This document shows, one piece after another, positions 46,282 through 53,626 of a DNA stretch of 64,000 nt; positions within the stretch are counted from its first letter, which is position 1; each line of letters begins with the position of its first letter. The stretch lies in the NCBI GenBank assembly GCA_965116905.1, contig OZ220732.1, forward strand, positions 544,001 through 608,000. The letters are read 5' to 3'. This DNA comes from Longimicrobiales bacterium (lineage in GTDB: Bacteria; Gemmatimonadota; Gemmatimonadetes; Longimicrobiales; Gaopeijiaceae). A model generated the notes under the pieces. It was not told where the DNA came from, ran no database searches, and saw nothing but the letters and a program-made list of their open reading frames with translations. The translations under genes and the position numbers were made by a program.

Positions 46282-46512
46282 ATGGCTCGACGGGTCAACA
46301 TCATGATGGACGATGACTCCTGGCGCATTATCGGGAGGCTGCCGCGCGGTACTCGCAGCCGGGCCGTCAACGCCGCCATCCGGGAGTGGGCGGGTGTCTC
46401 CATGAGGCGGGAAGCCTCTGCCCGGATGGACGCATTGCGCGCGCGCTTGCCGGCGGTTGACACGTGCCAGATCGTCCAATGGATTCGGGAGGAGCGGGAA
46501 CGGCGGCCGTGA
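46282..46512 (+). CDS. Antitoxin (RHH-like)
   Basis: MARRVNIMMDD...RSRAVNAAIREW; GGAGG SD; GTGA overlap with PIN toxin. Confidence 0.8.
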   Translation: MARRVNIMMDDDSWRIIGRLPRGTRSRAVNAAIREWAGVSMRREASARMDALRARLPAVDTCQIVQWIREERERRP

Positions 46513-46937
46513 TCGTAACGCCCGACGCATCGGTTCTTCTCAAGTGGGTTCTGCCGGGCGACGACGAGCAGGACACGGACGCGGCGCTCGCCCTGCGTGA
46601 CGAAGCGGTGAGCGGGAAGCTTGAGCTGGTCGTTCCCCAGCTCTGGATCTACGAGGTGGGAAACACGCTGGCGAGACGGTTCCCCGATGACGCCGACGAA
46701 CTTCTCGCATCGCTGGTCGACTTCGGCCTGACCGAGGCCCGACTGGACGCCGACTGGAGAACGCGGGCGGTGTCCTTGTCCGTGAGGTACGGCGTCGCGT
46801 TCTACGACGCGGGGTACCATGCCGTGGCGCTCGAGCTGGATGGTGTGTTCGTCACCGCCGACGAACGATACGTGCGCCGCGCGGCGGGCGCCGGCAGCAT
46901 CTCAACGTTGCGGGCCTGGCGAACGGATTCCTCCTAG
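46509..46937 (+). CDS. vapC: VapC/PIN-domain toxin
   Basis: DASVLLKW, YEVGNTL, FYDAGYHAVA and FVTAD motifs. Confidence 0.92.
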   Translation: MIVTPDASVLLKWVLPGDDEQDTDAALALRDEAVSGKLELVVPQLWIYEVGNTLARRFPDDADELLASLVDFGLTEARLDADWRTRAVSLSVRYGVAFYDAGYHAVALELDGVFVTADERYVRRAAGAGSISTLRAWRTDSS

Positions 46938-46941
46938 CGCA

Positions 46942-46982
46942 CACCCCCGGGCTCGTCCTCCACGAACCCCCGGTATCCCAGC
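46942..46982. repeat. Left copy of 41-bp direct repeat (displaced 3' end of amidohydrolase gene)
   Basis: 40/41 identical to 48551-48591; minus strand reads LGYRGFVEDEPG and continues GVR-TAG to 46934. Confidence 0.95.
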
Positions 46983-47087
46983 CACAGGCCATAGACCCTC
47001 TGACCTCGCCGAAGGTTCAGAACCGGACACACTATGTGCTAGAAAACCGGACAGATAAAGTGCTCTCAACAAACCGCCGTAACGTGG

Positions 47088-47116
47088 TTGACTAAGGTCC
47101 CTGGTCCTCCTAGGGT
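47088..47116 (+). promoter_or_regulatory. Candidate sigma70 promoter for peptide-propeller operon
   Basis: TTGACT-N17-TAGGGT; preceded by 20-bp imperfect direct repeats at 47021-47040 and 47045-47064. Confidence 0.55.
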
Positions 47117-47182
47117 TCAGCCCGCTGGTCGGAGGACCCCCCTCTCGCCACGATTACTCGACTCCCACAGTGAGGAGAATCA

Positions 47183-47380
47183 ATGTCGCGCTTCAACCGT
47201 GTTGCCCTGACCCGCTCCCTCGTAATAGCGATAGCCGTAGTCTTCGCTCCCCTCCTCGCGGCCCAGACCACAACGCCGTGTTTCGACGAGTGCCATGCAG
47301 CCGCAATGGACCGTTACAACGAAGGCATGCCGCTCTTCATGAACGACGCGATTTTCAAGCTGTGCCTCGACCTTTGCTAA
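47183..47380 (+). CDS. Small secreted Cys-motif peptide (CX3C-X23-CX3C), 65 aa
   Basis: GAGGAG SD before ATG47183; Sec-type signal ending LLAA|Q; four Cys in mature part. Confidence 0.75.
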   Translation: MSRFNRVALTRSLVIAIAVVFAPLLAAQTTTPCFDECHAAAMDRYNEGMPLFMNDAIFKLCLDLC

Positions 47381-47415
47381 CACTGCACCCTGGCGGCAAG
47401 CATCCACTTTCAACT

Positions 47416-48438
47416 GTGGCGGCCGTCTCCGTGGCGGTCGCTGCAGTTGCGTGTGACTCCGGGACGGTCACCACTCCAGCCGTCCCCCTCGCTTCTATCG
47501 CCTCCGTGTCCGCACCGTTTAGCGTTGACACGCGCATCGTGCTAGTGGATGAAGACCTCGTATGCGTGAACAACTCCTTCGAGATGCGAGTCCGGTGTGT
47601 TGACCAGCGCGGCGACCTGGTCGGTGTATTCGGTCGCAGGGGAGAGGGCCCAGGGGAGTTCGAACTGCCACCGAGTCTTGTGCGCGGACCCGACGGCACG
47701 GTTGGCGCCATCTCCATCAACCGGCTTGCCATCTTCACCCCCGGTGGGGATCTGGTTGATGAGATAACCTTACCCGTAGGCTTTCCCCTTCCGGCCGCAA
47801 AGTCGTTTGATACGACTCTTCTGGCCAACTACTACCTGGGCGGGGCCAATATGACCTTGGTAGAGATCGACCTCTCATCCGCCACCGTGCTGTGGGAACG
47901 CCAGGACATCGCCCACATCGCCGCGACCGAGTGCGGCAGCGTTGCACTGGGAGTCGCTTCTCCCTCCGGAGGCTGGACGTTCCCCGCGTGTCAGCGTGAA
48001 CTCGCATTCCTCGACGATCGTGACGCATCCACCGCTACCGCCATCCTGTCTCCAACCTATGCCGAAGAGTTTCCCAACGAACGCGATATCGCGGAGATGC
48101 AAGCCCAGACCCAGCCCTTTGCCTTTCGAGCGGATTTGGACGTGTACAGGGAGACCCCGAAGCGCAATCACCTCAGGGTCGGGTCCCTTGCGTACGACGA
48201 TGAAGGCCGTCTTTGGGTAGCCACGGAACGAGACCGTTCCCGGTTCTCCTATTTCGACCTCTATGTCGGCACCGAGCACGTCGGCTCGGTGCGGATCAAG
48301 GATCGCCTTCTGGGCTACGACCTCTATGGTTCCACCCTGGCTGCCCTGGTCGAGCGCGACCCCGACACCGACGGAATAGGACGCCGTGCCGTGGACTGGT
48401 ACGATATTGGGCCTCTGGATTTCGGTGTGGGACAATAG
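47416..48438 (+). CDS. 6-bladed beta-propeller-like lipoprotein
   Basis: AAVAC lipobox-like; FGRRGEGPGEF; DDEGRLWV; start uncertain (frame open from 47170). Confidence 0.7.
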   Translation: MAAVSVAVAAVACDSGTVTTPAVPLASIASVSAPFSVDTRIVLVDEDLVCVNNSFEMRVRCVDQRGDLVGVFGRRGEGPGEFELPPSLVRGPDGTVGAISINRLAIFTPGGDLVDEITLPVGFPLPAAKSFDTTLLANYYLGGANMTLVEIDLSSATVLWERQDIAHIAATECGSVALGVASPSGGWTFPACQRELAFLDDRDASTATAILSPTYAEEFPNERDIAEMQAQTQPFAFRADLDVYRETPKRNHLRVGSLAYDDEGRLWVATERDRSRFSYFDLYVGTEHVGSVRIKDRLLGYDLYGSTLAALVERDPDTDGIGRRAVDWYDIGPLDFGVGQ

Positions 48439-48536
48439 CTCGAGCACGAACATTTTTTCGCTCAAATAGCTTCCCTCGAAGTCGCCCGCTGCTTCCCAAG
48501 GTCTAGAGCCTGACCCGGCAGACGGCCTCGGTCAGC

Positions 48537-51500
48537 CTACCGATTCTCGCCACCCCCGGGCTCGTCCTCCACGAACCCGCGGTATCCCAGCGCCCGCTGC
48601 CGCGGCCAGACCTCGTCGAGGGTCTCCGCGTCGAACAGCCTCCCGTTGATCATCACCTGCTCGACCAATTCGGTATTCCGGAGATCGTCGAGGGGGTTGC
48701 GCGACAGGATGGCCAGGTCGGCCAGCTTGCCGGGCTCGATCGAGCCGAGTTCGGTCTCGAGGCCGATGCCGTTGGCGCCGAAGATCGTGGCGGACTTGAG
48801 CGCGTCGTGGTTCGACATGCCGCCCGAGGCGACCATCCACAGCTCCCAGTGGAACCCGAGGCCCTGGAGCTGGCCGTGGCTGCCGACCCCAGCGAAGCCG
48901 CCGTCAGCGACCACATCGGCCAGGAAGCGGGCGTGGTCTTCGAAGACGTACTCCTCGTCGATCGCCCACGCGACCGAACCCGCCGCGCCGGCGCGCCGCC
49001 GGGTGCGGGAGTCGAGGGTCTCGCGGGGTGTGAATCGCACCAGGCGCTCGTTGCCGAGCACGTCCTCGGTCGTGAACCAGTAGATCTCGCCCATGGGGCC
49101 GCCGAAGGAGACGATCAGCGTCGGCGTGTTCAGGACCTTTGTCGCCGAAAAGAGGCGGACGACATCGTGATAGAGGGGGTAGATGGGGACGTTGTGTTCG
49201 ATCCCGGGATAGCCGTCCATTGCGTGCGTCAGGTCGGCCTGATAGTCGAGTCCGGCCTCGGTCGTCGGCATGAGCTCGAGTTCGCGCGCCGCCATGACGA
49301 GCCACTGTCGCTGCTGGCGGTTCCCCGAGAGGTACATCTTGAACGTCTTGGTGTCGTAGTAGTCCGAGTAGCGCCTGAGGACATTGCGCGCGTGGTCGAG
49401 GTCGCGGATGCCCTCCAGCGCCTGGTAGTTGCCGAAGACCCCCGGGCCGGTGGAGAAGATGCGCGGTCCCAGGATGTCGCCTGACCGCACCCGGTCGGCG
49501 TAGGTGAGGACGTCCGAGACGCCGGTCTGGGGGTCGCGTGTGGTCGTGACGCCGAACGCCAGGTTGGCGAGGTAGCCCCACGGCTGCGTGGTGTGGACGC
49601 CGGCCGGCGGACGCAGGTGGGCGTGCGTGTCGACGAAGCCGGGCGTGATGGTCATGCCGGAGACGTCGCGGACCTCGGCGCCGTCGGGGACGGAGAGCGT
49701 GCCGGATGGGCCCACCGCGGCGATGCGGTGGCCGTCGATGAGGATGTCTCCCCGTTCGATGACGTCGTCCCCGCGCATCGTGATGACGCGTGCGCCGGAG
49801 AGCAGGAGCGTCCCGGTGGGCAGGTCGCGGGGGACGTCGAGGGCGACGCGGACTTCGGTGGGCTGGTAGCGGGGGTTGGAGGAGGAGGACGCGGCTGGAT
49901 CGTCGGTCGCCGCAGGGTCGGCGGCGTCCGCAGGGTCGGCCTCGTCGGACTCCGCAGCCTCCGCAGCCTCGACGCTGTCCGCGAATGCCTCCGCGTCGGC
50001 CAGGTTGTAGCGGAAGTACGCGTTCCCGAGTGCCCAAACCGCCTCGGTGCCGTCGCTGCTCCAAGACTGGAACTCGCCGCCGGACTCGGTGATGCGGGTG
50101 ACCGGGACCGCTGCGCCGGAGGGACTCCGGACCGAGACTGTCGGGGCCTCGGCGCCCACCTGTGGGACGGTCACGAGGTAGAGGTCGTTGCCCACCTTGG
50201 CCAGCGCCCGCCCCCCGGCGGGTGACACCCGAATCGAGGAGGCGTTGGCCGGGGGACCGCTACGGTTGGCCGAGAAGCCGGTGACCTTGAGGTGTTCCTT
50301 CTCGTCGGTGCCGTCCCAGCGGATCGAGACCAGGCCGCGCGTGCCCGCGTGCAGGTAGATGCGGTCGGGTTGGTCGGTGCGGAAGTGCGGCTGGGAGCGT
50401 CCCAGCGCCTCCGCCACGATTGTCGCCGCGGCGGGGGCGCCGCTGCCCGCCCCGTACCAGACGATGTCGGCCTGGCCACCGCCGCCGGCACCTTGCAGAC
50501 GTGCGCGCACCGGTCGCTGCAGCGCCACGATGCGGTCGCCGTCTGGAGACCAGGCGGGGGATTGCAGATAGCGGGCCGCGTCCGACACGCGCCGGGCGCC
50601 GTCGCCATTCGCAGGGATCTCCCAGAGATGGCCACCGTCCGGCTCACGCCAGCTCACCGCCGCCAATGTCTCGCCGTCGGGCGACCACGCGGGATGGAAC
50701 ACGGCACCGTCGACCTCCGCGCCGATCCGGCGCGGGACACCTCCACCTGCTTCCATCACATACAGCTGGCCAAGCGCGGTGAAGGCGACCGTGCCGCCGT
50801 CCGGCGACAGGGCGACCTCGCGGATCTGGCGCGCGCGGAAGGTGGGCGTGTCCTCGACCGGGTAGTCGAAGTCGAGGCGGGGGCCCGCGTGGATGACCAC
50901 GTCGGCCGTGAAGGGGATCTCGGTGGGCTCGTTCGCGTCCGTCTCGCCGGCGTTTGTCTCACCGGCATCCAGCGGCACGCGCCACAGGCGGCCGCCGTAC
51001 GAGGCGATCAGCGCGGTGCCATCGGGCGTGAAGGCGTAGCCGGGGAGGAGGTCGAGGGTCGCGCGGCTCTCCATGTCGTCGCGCTGCACGGGGTAGACGA
51101 GCCAGCGTTCGTTGCCGGTGGCGAGGTCGCGGGCGCGGAGACCCGTGGCATCCTCGTGGCGGGAACCGTAGACCAGCGTGGCGCCGTCGGGGGATACGGC
51201 CGGGCGGAACCCGGAACCGTAGCGGCCGGTGACCGTAGGGCTGCGGCCTGTCTCGCGGTCATAGCGGACGAGCTGGTACTTCGGGAAGGCCGCGTCGTAG
51301 GTCCAGTCGCGCGTCCCCTGCGCGAGGTAGATGTAGCGGCCTGTGGGATCGAAGGCGGCCCCGATGGCCTTGAGCTGTTCGGGCTCGTCGATCAGGGCGA
51401 TCCCGCTGCCCCCGTCGCGGTGGAAGAGCCACGGCTTCGCGGCGCCGCCGAGCGGGCTGAAGGTGCGGGACGCGACGAGGTACTGCCCGTCCGGGGACCA

Positions 51501-51944
51501 CTCGGGCGAAGTGTAGAGGTTGTCGTTGCCGCGGGTAATCTGGGTCGTGTCGGAGCCGTCGGTGCTCAGGACCCAGAGGTTCTGGCCGCCGCTCCTGTCC
51601 GAGACGAAGACGATTTCGCTTCCGTCGGGGCTGAAGCGCGGCTGGCTCTCGAAGGCGGGGCCGGTGAGGAGCGGGGTGGCGGCGCCGCCGTCGACGGGGA
51701 GCGTGTAGAGGTCGCCGAGCAAGTCGAAGACGAGGGTGGCGCCGTCCGGGCTGATGTCGACGGAGATCCAGGAGCCCTCGCTGGTGGTGAACCGGATCTC
51801 GCGGGTGGGCTCGAGGGGGAGGGAGGCGGTGGCGAGGGAGTCGGCCTGCGCCGCGGTGCCGGCGGACTCCTGGGCGTGGGCGGGCGCCGCCGGGAGGGAC
51901 GCGATAAATGCGATGGCGACGAAGGTGAGGACGAGGCTCTTCAT
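48537..51944 (-). CDS. Secreted amidohydrolase with N-terminal PD40/TolB-like propellers
   Basis: Repeated P-x-F/W-S-P-D-G; PGFVDTHAH, GSHGQLQG and GSIEPGKLADL motifs; signal ending AHAQ. Confidence 0.9.
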   Translation of the reverse strand: MKSLVLTFVAIAFIASLPAAPAHAQESAGTAAQADSLATASLPLEPTREIRFTTSEGSWISVDISPDGATLVFDLLGDLYTLPVDGGAATPLLTGPAFESQPRFSPDGSEIVFVSDRSGGQNLWVLSTDGSDTTQITRGNDNLYTSPEWSPDGQYLVASRTFSPLGGAAKPWLFHRDGGSGIALIDEPEQLKAIGAAFDPTGRYIYLAQGTRDWTYDAAFPKYQLVRYDRETGRSPTVTGRYGSGFRPAVSPDGATLVYGSRHEDATGLRARDLATGNERWLVYPVQRDDMESRATLDLLPGYAFTPDGTALIASYGGRLWRVPLDAGETNAGETDANEPTEIPFTADVVIHAGPRLDFDYPVEDTPTFRARQIREVALSPDGGTVAFTALGQLYVMEAGGGVPRRIGAEVDGAVFHPAWSPDGETLAAVSWREPDGGHLWEIPANGDGARRVSDAARYLQSPAWSPDGDRIVALQRPVRARLQGAGGGGQADIVWYGAGSGAPAAATIVAEALGRSQPHFRTDQPDRIYLHAGTRGLVSIRWDGTDEKEHLKVTGFSANRSGPPANASSIRVSPAGGRALAKVGNDLYLVTVPQVGAEAPTVSVRSPSGAAVPVTRITESGGEFQSWSSDGTEAVWALGNAYFRYNLADAEAFADSVEAAEAAESDEADPADAADPAATDDPAASSSSNPRYQPTEVRVALDVPRDLPTGTLLLSGARVITMRGDDVIERGDILIDGHRIAAVGPSGTLSVPDGAEVRDVSGMTITPGFVDTHAHLRPPAGVHTTQPWGYLANLAFGVTTTRDPQTGVSDVLTYADRVRSGDILGPRIFSTGPGVFGNYQALEGIRDLDHARNVLRRYSDYYDTKTFKMYLSGNRQQRQWLVMAARELELMPTTEAGLDYQADLTHAMDGYPGIEHNVPIYPLYHDVVRLFSATKVLNTPTLIVSFGGPMGEIYWFTTEDVLGNERLVRFTPRETLDSRTRRRAGAAGSVAWAIDEEYVFEDHARFLADVVADGGFAGVGSHGQLQGLGFHWELWMVASGGMSNHDALKSATIFGANGIGLETELGSIEPGKLADLAILSRNPLDDLRNTELVEQVMINGRLFDAETLDEVWPRQRALGYRGFVEDEPGGGENR
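48551..48591. repeat. Right copy of 41-bp direct repeat (current 3' end of amidohydrolase gene)
   Basis: CACCCCCGGGCTCGTCCTCCACGAACCCGCGGTATCCCAGC. Confidence 0.95.
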
Positions 51945-51949
51945 TTCGG

Positions 51950-52414
51950 TTACTCCCCGAGGCTGTGGCGCCGACGCCGTTCCGGCACGCGAGGCACCGT
52001 CTCGAACCCGGCCTGAGAGAAATGGCGATCGGTCGTCAGGGCCCTGGCCAGACCCAGTTCCTGCATCACGACGAAGCTTGTGCAATCGGTAAACGAGAAG
52101 TCCCTGTCGGTCCACTCGAAGAAGCGCGTCCGGGCTTTCTCGGCCCGCGAGGCATCGATGCGTTCCCAGCGGATCCGGGAACTGGCGTCGATCTGGGCCC
52201 ACCACTCCTCGGCCGCACGCAGCCCCAGCCGAACCCGAATGAGCGTCAGCGTCTCGTCGATCACATAGTCGGTCGAGACCAGGATCCCCCCGCTCTCCAG
52301 GCACACGTCGCGTTCCCGACGGCTGGCTTGATGCGCCGGGTCAGCGGCGTCGGCCATGGCCATCCAGCCGGCCGTGTCGACGAAGAGCGCCCGGCCGCTC
52401 GGTGGGCTACTCAC
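51950..52414 (-). CDS. vapC: VapC/PIN-domain toxin
   Basis: LFVDTAGW, VIDETLTL, FSFTDCTSFVVM and TTDRHF motifs. Confidence 0.92.
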   Translation of the reverse strand: MSSPPSGRALFVDTAGWMAMADAADPAHQASRRERDVCLESGGILVSTDYVIDETLTLIRVRLGLRAAEEWWAQIDASSRIRWERIDASRAEKARTRFFEWTDRDFSFTDCTSFVVMQELGLARALTTDRHFSQAGFETVPRVPERRRRHSLGE

Positions 52415-52661: not shown

Positions 52662-52803
52662 CGGCGAACCCCCGGACGCTGCCTGGTGAGCGACTAAAGA
52701 TAAACTTAAGATAACCTTTGGTGATTGGTTGCGCGCCAAGCTACCTCGATTCTAGCGTACTCCCCGAGAGCTTTCGATCCTGTCGCGCCGCAAAGGAGAT
52801 CCC

Positions 52804-52902
52804 ATGTCTACGTTCGTGCTGGTTCGTCGTGTCCAGGCATCGGACACCGAGGCGTGCGGATCTCGCACAGCACTTCCTGCGGAGCAGGGCGCTTGCCGCT
52901 AG
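52804..52902 (+). CDS. 32-aa upstream ORF (candidate erm leader peptide or frameshifted erm N-terminus)
   Basis: AAGGAG SD then ATG52804: MSTFVLVRRVQASDTEACGSRTALPAEQGACR*; out of frame with erm. Confidence 0.45.
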   Translation: MSTFVLVRRVQASDTEACGSRTALPAEQGACR

Positions 52903-53626
52903 CCTGATCGCTCAGGCCCCCGTCGAACGAAGCGACCTGGTCGTCGAGATCGGGCCGGGCCGCGGCATTCTCACTCGAGAACTGGCACGCCGCTGTCGCA
53001 AGGTCGTCGCGGTGGAGTTCGACGGAGTGCTGGCGGACGCGCTTCGCACACGCTTCCTGAGTGACAACCGCGTCACGATCGTCACGGCCGACATCCTGCG
53101 TTTTGGGCTGCCCGATGTCCCCTACAAGGTTCTGGGGAACATTCCGTTCAATCGGACCGCCGCGATCGTGCGGCGGCTCGCCCAGGCCGATGCTCCGCCA
53201 CAGGACGCCTATCTCGTGGTCCAGCGTGAAGCGGCGGAACGATTCGCCGGAGGTCCCTTTTCCCGGGAGACCCGGTCCTCGCTGTTGCTCAAGCCGTGGT
53301 GGCAAATCGAAATCGCGCGGCGCCTTCGCCGTACCGACTTCGATCCCCCTCCCTCCGTCGACGCCGTCGCCCTATGGCTTGCCCGTCGAACGAGGCCACT
53401 CGTGGACCGATCCCGGGCCGCGGACTACCGTCGCTTCATCCGGACTTGCTTCGGTCGCGATGGTCAGTCGATCAGACGATGTCTGCGACCCGAGTTCACG
53501 CGAACGCAGATCCACCGATTGAGTCGGGATCTGAGGTTCGATCCGTCGGGGCCACCTTCAAACCTCATCTTCGACCAATGGCTCGGGCTGTTCAGATTCC
53601 GCGGGCTCAGGCCGGACTCAGGATGA
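52829..53626 (+). CDS. erm: Erm-family 23S rRNA adenine-N6 methyltransferase
   Basis: AQHFL, EIGPGRGILT, GNIPFNRT, PWW, F-x-PPPSVD and DQWLGLF motifs (more Erm-like than KsgA-like); start uncertain. Confidence 0.75.
   Translation: MSRHRTPRRADLAQHFLRSRALAASLIAQAPVERSDLVVEIGPGRGILTRELARRCRKVVAVEFDGVLADALRTRFLSDNRVTIVTADILRFGLPDVPYKVLGNIPFNRTAAIVRRLAQADAPPQDAYLVVQREAAERFAGGPFSRETRSSLLLKPWWQIEIARRLRRTDFDPPPSVDAVALWLARRTRPLVDRSRAADYRRFIRTCFGRDGQSIRRCLRPEFTRTQIHRLSRDLRFDPSGPPSNLIFDQWLGLFRFRGLRPDSG

Follow-up and report, generated by a model that had tools for sequence, protein, structure and literature searches.

Insertions with a long target duplication are rearrangements in which an insert of less than 20 kb is flanked by direct repeats longer than 30 bp, an empty site can be found and no other mobile element is present (PMC2853133). 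The examples in that 2010 survey have repeats of 45-47 bp and ~400 bp, and are often at start or stop codons and in competent species; the mechanism was left open, with restriction-driven breaks proposed. Restriction-modification cargo was the search criterion of the survey and not part of the rearrangement type. Here we describe a locus in a 64,000-nt stretch of contig OZ220732.1 from a Longimicrobiales bacterium (hereafter the window, to which all positions refer unless a genome contig is named), where the 3′ end of an amidohydrolase gene is found twice, on either side of 1.57 kb of DNA. The locus is a case of insertion with long target duplication, with a non-restriction cargo, in a sponge-associated genus of Gemmatimonadota. 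We estimate a probability of roughly 0.65 that it is the eroded scar of additive homologous recombination, and not an element bounded by attachment (att) sites.

The likeness to the described class is close. The insert is below 20 kb, the repeat is unique, longer than 30 bp and near a stop codon, relatives have the empty site, the target gene is intact, there is no integrase and the repeat lengths vary. In contrast to the described cases, the cargo is a peptide gene and a propeller lipoprotein gene rather than restriction-modification genes, a relic of an insertion sequence (IS) is present though no intact mobile element is, each copy has the tail of a different natural allele, and there is both an erosion series (63, 41 and 20 bp) and a set of stacked arrays at a second gene, PepX. 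Two further systems are comparable in part. In complex class 1 integrons, according to the outline of ISCR1 in PMC7707992, the IS makes a circle that contains cargo together with part of the target. Homologous recombination then rescues this circle, so that the target piece is duplicated around cargo and IS, a layout that we infer here as well. That outline concerns a rolling-circle element, whereas our relic is of the DDE, IS1202-like kind, for which circle formation would have to be assumed. The additive flexible genomic islands of Alteromonas, as characterized in PMC4898812, also accumulate cassettes at a fixed gene end, each leaving a target repeat. They are described there as using mostly tRNA/tmRNA targets and site-directed recombination, while the targets here are protein genes and the repeats range from 20 to 1264 bp. 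Neither this locus nor gene-tail arrays in Gemmatimonadota turned up in a literature search of limited reach.

The two 41-bp copies (Table 1) are identical at 40 of 41 positions, and the only mismatch is a synonymous arginine change, CGG/CGC. Both are read in the frame of the amidohydrolase, and the old amidohydrolase TAG overlaps the TAG of vapC within CTAG at 46934-46937. The interval is more AT-rich than its flanks (60.3% GC, compared with 66.8% in vapBC and 70.5% in the amidohydrolase) and contains two open reading frames (ORFs). All these points had been made in a preliminary description based on the sequence alone, and they hold up. The genome (G000, 4,207,120 bp, a single contig, C1) has no closer match to the 41-mer than one with 12 mismatches, which rules out a dispersed multicopy repeat, one of the outcomes that would have undone that description. 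Another, misassembly, is not the case either. The contig of run X22 corresponds to 46623-48885 and spans both copies, that of run X23 corresponds to 46940-48647, and neither differs from the window at any position; X22 may be the sample from which the genome came. The compared genomes are metagenome assemblies, which might raise the suspicion of an artefact. However, with the same contigs from two runs, four carrier genomes and a chance expectation of ~2e-10 for a 41-bp repeat, an assembly artefact or a chance repeat is hardly credible. Versions of the region with ~95% identity are found in sponge and coral metagenome runs (X1, X2, X4 and X6).

Relatives reveal what the site looked like without the insert. 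The gene end was matched at E<=1e-25 in 31 of 53 genomes of the genus; the 30 genome loci returned and four metagenome loci give 34 classified ends (G041, M134 and M137 among them look like one species). Four ends carry the insert, those of G000, G013, G043 and G062. Nine are empty alleles, as the preliminary description had predicted: a single copy of the repeat is present and the old-type tail leads straight into vapC sequence, with the whole of vapBC in six. The putative antitoxin gene lies outside the insertion and is present in these six, and the junction between the stranded copy and vapC is the same as in empty alleles. For example, the empty allele of G042 is identical to the left copy at 41 of 41 positions and that of G021 ends in PGGGR*, and the overlap of the vapC and amidohydrolase stop codons recurs in the empty alleles of G021, G046 and G048. 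Another four ends have the ENR-type tail and the spacer without any cargo, and the remaining 17 have different tails and neighbours. An EHR*-type tail with the spacer is the resident allele of the G001/G041 clade, and the first ~60 bp of the spacer are common to these two cargo-free genomes. Read along the host gene, the locus consists of the amidohydrolase with its ENR* end, the spacer, the convergent lipoprotein and peptide genes, the leader, 89 bp of IS, the stranded 41 bp with VR*, and vapC. The empty alleles and the two tail alleles support the earlier claim that the insertion swapped the 3′ end of the gene and stranded the old one.

The repeat itself is not of a fixed size. The stranded copy is 41 bp long in G000, ~56-63 bp in G013 (63 gene bases with a 7-nt gap) and just 20 bp in both G062 and G043, so that the direct repeat exceeds 30 bp in the first two. 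The stranded copies are joined to differing points of the same IS, with three different junctions in the four carriers. Since both copy lengths and IS junctions differ, one longer ancestral structure would have been trimmed independently, and the 41 bp is not a recombination core. From the alignment of the carriers, these 41 bp are likely a deletion endpoint, the remnant of a longer duplication. The proposal of a 41-bp att core is therefore not supported, and the IS relic directly abuts the copy.

In the accretion of cis-mobilizable elements (CIMEs), cassettes pile up at a fixed gene end and each leaves a target repeat. Is the locus the relic of such a site-specific element, of CIME or satellite type, inserted at an att site by an integrase that acted in trans or has since been deleted, and with the IS and the deletions as later additions? 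Indeed, the target is the 3′ end of a gene, which is restored; the ~60 bp kept behind the ENR tail in G001 and G041 could be an old att arm, and a rare A found in both G000 copies (discussed below) could reflect re-integration or gene conversion. There are also 12 tyrosine-recombinase matches in G000. We consider this explanation unlikely, because the copy length is not fixed (though a longer att block might have eroded), the cassette ends are absent from 32 other cargo loci, and the sister cases described below reach 685-1264 bp, well above att identity blocks. Furthermore, no integrase is apparent by eye in the ORF listing of 13 orthologous regions, which was made without a profile scan. A cognate integrase was thus seen neither at the site nor in a sister element; the nearest PF00589 match to the locus is more than 500 kb away, and PF07508 was not found in the genome.

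The same explanation would lead us to expect empty sites or circles, and the preliminary description had suggested that the insert could be excised as a circle of ~1.6 kb. This is not supported: among the contigs of the identical strain from runs X22 and X23 no empty-site or circle junction is listed, and such contigs drop rare forms. The raw run X24 has no coverage of the island. Two candidate junctions were discarded. A skip of 1609 in run X2 belongs to a different strain, with 15 differences in 136 bp. A joint in run X4 that goes back 1509 fits an alignment of the left copy of that strain to the right copy; in contigs this looks the same as a circle, and the joint was not counted as evidence.

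The 89 bp beside the stranded copy were compared against intact IS copies in G012, G019 and G059, and consist of IS nt 1-68 at 88% identity and, after an internal deletion of 51 nt, IS nt 120-142, which encode the transposase codons RVYGLW. The relic is joined to the stranded copy at a GC microhomology, and nothing else of the IS survives in the window. It had been stated that no recombinase lies between the copies. As an IS end and transposase codons of an IS1202-like (ISNCY) element are fused to the left copy, this statement is incomplete, and the part that stands is that there is no intact mobile element. In a genus-wide search with the island, window positions 47004-47071 proved multicopy in other genomes, and IS DNA matches occur in 34 of the 53 genomes, many of them fragmentary. 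The intact copies are 1,366-1,367 bp long with TGT...ACA termini and a single ORF for a 393-aa transposase (NF033594, 318.7 bits, cut-off 250). Four of seven copies have target duplications of 15, 16, 17 and, with a single mismatch, another 17 bp; the other three have 8 bp, ~6 bp and none.

The IS1202 family, as defined in bioRxiv 10.1101/2022.12.17.520857, comprises elements of 1,320-1,990 bp with TGT termini, a single transposase ORF and target duplications of 5-28 bp. Its ISTde1 subgroup is given there with 15-17-bp duplications, transposases of 400-500 aa and occurrence in Gemmatimonadetes. Going by these described features, the intact relatives of the relic fit the ISTde1 subgroup in size (~1,366 bp), TGT ends, single ORF and 15-17-bp duplications, with a transposase slightly under the stated range. 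No intact helper IS was found in G000 itself; apart from the relic there is only an ORF with 41% identity that lacks terminal repeats. ORFs of this ISNCY-like kind, ~41-44% identical to the intact transposase, occur at G000:C1:718094-719059 and L082:2877-4076. Terminal repeats were not found for these two, their catalytic regions are degenerate and they are possibly domesticated.

With an IS end fused to the left copy, and an IS whose duplications are unusually long, pure transposition comes to mind, with the repeat as a long target-site duplication made by the IS or by a composite transposon built on it. That said, repeats of 41-63 bp exceed the family range, the right boundary has no IS end, and the neighbourhood has no second copy of the 16 bp next to the left end. 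We regard transposition as very unlikely; the missing second end largely refutes it already.

How, then, could the locus have arisen? Additive homologous recombination fits copies that vary in length, sometimes reach kilobases and represent two natural alleles. The donor DNA would have contained the amidohydrolase tail of another lineage, the peptide and propeller genes and an IS1202-like IS, either as a circle or recombining across sister chromosomes, for which PMC3784515 offers a precedent. A single crossover into the last ~100 bp of the resident gene would keep the gene intact with a new tail and push the old tail downstream. The original duplication would have been longer, at least the 63 bp seen in G013. 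Independent microhomology deletions may then have removed the body of the IS and cut the dead copy to 41, ~56 or 20 bp, and such trimming would shield the cargo from loop-out by RecA. Since then, recombination in the flanks has probably carried the filled allele from species to species, and the tail swap itself was probably neutral. In favour of this mechanism, ComEC and DprA are present in the genome, though 10-11 of 14 controls have them too. The mechanism favoured here is close to one of the options of the preliminary description, homology-facilitated recombination into the end of a protein gene.

Did the IS make the donor circle? IS1202-family elements are reported to circularize through an attack of the right end on the left flank. 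If such an attack reached too far, it would take along the leader, the cargo and the gene tail in the order seen here, much as the ISCR1 model has it, and the cargo and gene tail do lie on the left-end side of the IS. We put this forward tentatively, as possible rather than probable; otherwise the IS would be a passenger in dead DNA.

Other genes of the genome have this layout as well, as the preliminary description had suggested might be found. The tails of 3,095 heuristically called genes were searched for matches within 15 kb downstream. Such matches were found for 32 genes, compared with none in a displaced control, and most are tandem paralogues. By inspection, four further loci have a complete gene, cargo and a stranded tail, with duplicated lengths of 108 bp (a helix-turn-helix gene, HTH), 163 bp (BrnA), 250 bp (McrC) and 685 bp (PepX). 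The cargo of the McrC case is a PD-(D/E)XK nuclease, and all five loci are at least 30 kb from any of the tyrosine-recombinase matches.

The PepX case is the most extensive. Counted at E<=1e-60 and nearby, extra copies of its 3′ end are found in five of 48 matching genomes, with lengths of 685, 626, 318 and 201 bp and, in G021, a stack of three (130, 1264 and 393 bp). A scan of 24 ORFs, a subset of those at the PepX loci, gave FGE-sulfatase-like, ankyrin, Ig-like, propeller, HipA and HicA cargo and no integrase; one DDE transposase lies downstream of the copy in G054. The DNA upstream of the stranded copy is shared by G000 and G021/G063 while the endpoints differ, which shows erosion once more. 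A 381-bp PepX tail with cargo is also present at a second place in G021 and G063.

Together these loci allow a bolder and more speculative reading, that the genus runs an integrase-free gene capture in which conserved gene tails serve as RecA landing pads for circles of tail plus cargo. The circles would be seeded by mis-excision of IS1202 elements or by loop-out from existing arrays, would integrate into any allele of the gene and form stacks, in which the cargo would become locked as the dead copy eroded. The 41-bp case would then be a locked end state and the PepX arrays (130-1264 bp) the active state. If true, this would be how genes of the ankyrin, FGE-sulfatase-like, Ig-like and propeller kinds pass from one symbiont species to another, which may explain how sponge symbionts gain and swap genes for eukaryote-like surface proteins.

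Gene phylogeny bears on the source of the tail. In a tree from 1.3 kb of the host gene (32 rows, M136 and M137 being too short), the cargo-free genomes with the ENR-type tail (G001, G041/M134) form their own branch with support of 98/96. The carriers are interleaved with empty alleles, for example G000 is paired with the empty G046 (99/98). Across the 23 columns by which the two groups differ, 81 of 92 calls in the four carriers are recipient-type and eight are donor-type. The informative column nearest the gene end has the donor base in three of the four. This is thin evidence for a switch to donor sequence, which may fall within roughly the last 100-125 bp of the gene, and sliding-window identity revealed no clear donor tract. 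Between G000 and the other three carriers the cargo is 95.6-95.7% identical and the flanks 89-94%, which suggests later lateral spread. At position 7 of the repeat, in the sense of the gene, both G000 copies have an A, while both G013 copies and 29 of the 34 ends have a G. The A shared by the G000 copies hints at gene conversion between them or at re-integration.

A tandem duplication of the gene end within one genome, by unequal crossing-over of sister chromosomes, followed by cargo filling and tail replacement, would account for two nearly identical G000 copies with a rare base in common. Transformation-driven tandem duplication through partial IS copies is documented (PMC3784515). However, the tails are different natural alleles of different clades, so a second transfer would be needed anyway, and the cargo is compositionally foreign, with a G+C content at third codon positions of 0.70 versus 0.91. 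We think this origin quite unlikely.

Several observations weigh against additive homologous recombination as we have outlined it. At the G013 junction, ten bases have no counterpart in either the IS or the gene. As neither the right end of the IS nor a long copy is kept here by any carrier, the ancestral junction is missing from the data, and no genome was found with the combination presumed for the donor, an ENR tail and this cargo but no old tail. On the gene tree the carriers do not form a single clade, and the carrier state needs four changes, at least two of them forced; a single origin therefore needs later transfer or loss. The donor-tract signal is one site, at which G000 itself is recipient-type, and two more distant sites also have donor bases. 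The A in both G000 copies, seen in only three of the 34 ends, speaks against a simple single history. Among the sister cases, the BrnA locus lies inside a tRNA-flanked island, and none of the four has an IS end, so the IS is not required.

The locus carries a general caution: when a gene ends in a short, att-like repeat, this can be what erosion has left of a long duplication made by recombination, as relatives reveal. It also adds to the known cases a long-target-duplication layout without restriction genes, in which there are graded intermediates and a candidate for the circle-making IS is oriented as expected. The layout is stacked at a second gene, and many near-complete genomes are available across the genus. 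Because of these graded intermediates, the candidate IS and the stacked second gene, the RecA single-crossover model is testable by comparative genomics.

Table 1. Features of the locus in the window and sister loci in the genome contig (G000:C1).
Feature	Position	Strand	Remarks
Putative antitoxin gene, 76 aa, resident vapBC-like pair	46282..46512	+	Overlaps PIN gene; label from position; no Pfam match
PIN-domain (VapC-like) gene	46509..46937	+	PF01850, E=1.7e-11
Stranded original amidohydrolase 3′ end	46934..46982	-	41-bp copy (46942-46982) and old tail VR*
ISNCY/IS1202-like IS relic	46983..47071	-	Left terminal repeat, TGT at 47071
Cargo operon leader	47072..47182	+	Ribosome-binding site, putative weak promoter
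65-aa peptide gene	47183..47380	+	ORF
354-aa predicted lipoprotein gene	47374..48438	+	NHL-like beta-propeller fold; TTG start overlaps peptide stop
Spacer, 98 bp	48439..48536	.	Behind new gene tail
Present amidohydrolase 3′ end	48537..48591	-	41-bp copy (48551-48591) and donor-type tail ENR*
Host gene, PD40/TolB-like propeller and amidohydrolase	48537..51950	-	1137 aa, intact; PF07676, PF01979
HTH locus, 108 bp	G000:C1 2.525 Mb
BrnA locus, 163 bp	G000:C1 2.704-2.707 Mb
McrC locus, 250 bp	G000:C1 3.571-3.573 Mb
PepX peptidase 3′ end duplicated	G000:C1:4098000-4116000		685 bp, 11.6 kb downstream

As for the cargo, the peptide has a hydrophobic, signal-like N-terminus followed by a C-x3-CH...C motif, and no match in Pfam or NCBIfam. 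Homologues are found in 10 of the 53 genus genomes, with A-Q, C, C, H, M and C invariant across ten of them. At nine of ten loci inspected the homologue is directly upstream of a propeller gene, and in G021 it is in tandem. A separate homologue search gave one match, from a carrier-like contig. An AlphaFold model of a 330-aa part of the lipoprotein has a mean-confidence score (pLDDT) of 92.7, and its top Foldseek matches are NHL domains with TM scores of ~0.6. The lipoprotein has 29 matches within its own genome, and its named homologues are hypothetical proteins of Gemmatimonadota labelled Longimicrobiales or Ca. Palauibacter. Taken from these sequence features and the model, the cargo is probably a secreted disulphide peptide and a surface lipoprotein as its putative partner, a pair that may resemble the NVEALA/propeller pairs of Bacteroidota.

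The preliminary description had envisaged a defined 1.6-kb cassette mobilised in trans. Yet the repeat, the IS relic end and the spacer are absent from all 32 homologous cargo loci of non-carriers, such a cassette is not supported, and the idea of mobile ends shared with other cargo loci was rejected. One non-carrier cargo locus in G021 shares the leader and adjoins a degenerate ISNCY-like ORF without ends. The leader is kept among carriers and in part in this G021 paralogue. A scan for sigma-70 promoters gave none, and the promoter claimed in the interval comes down to a weak TTGACT-17-TAGGGT seen by eye. At five other loci (L145-L148 and L164), propeller homologues are surrounded by direct repeats of 24-58 bp.

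Some minor features of the genome and the neighbourhood were recorded as well. Cargo of 5-13 kb is surrounded by stranded pieces of genes, 5′ or internal and 109-158 bp long, at G000:C1 1617483/1627079, 944733/949854 and 1596788/1610308; in the first of these, the start of an antitoxin gene is fused to a 685-aa ORF. Clusters of exact 28-57-bp repeats with shrinking diagonals, at G000:C1 307150-309000 and 1334200-1334600, look like a gene followed by a multiply deleted copy of itself, and could be decay or an assembly artefact. Finally, an RrnaAD (Erm/KsgA-like) rRNA methyltransferase gene at 52718-53623 of the window is differently placed in this neighbourhood in G014, G018 and G007.

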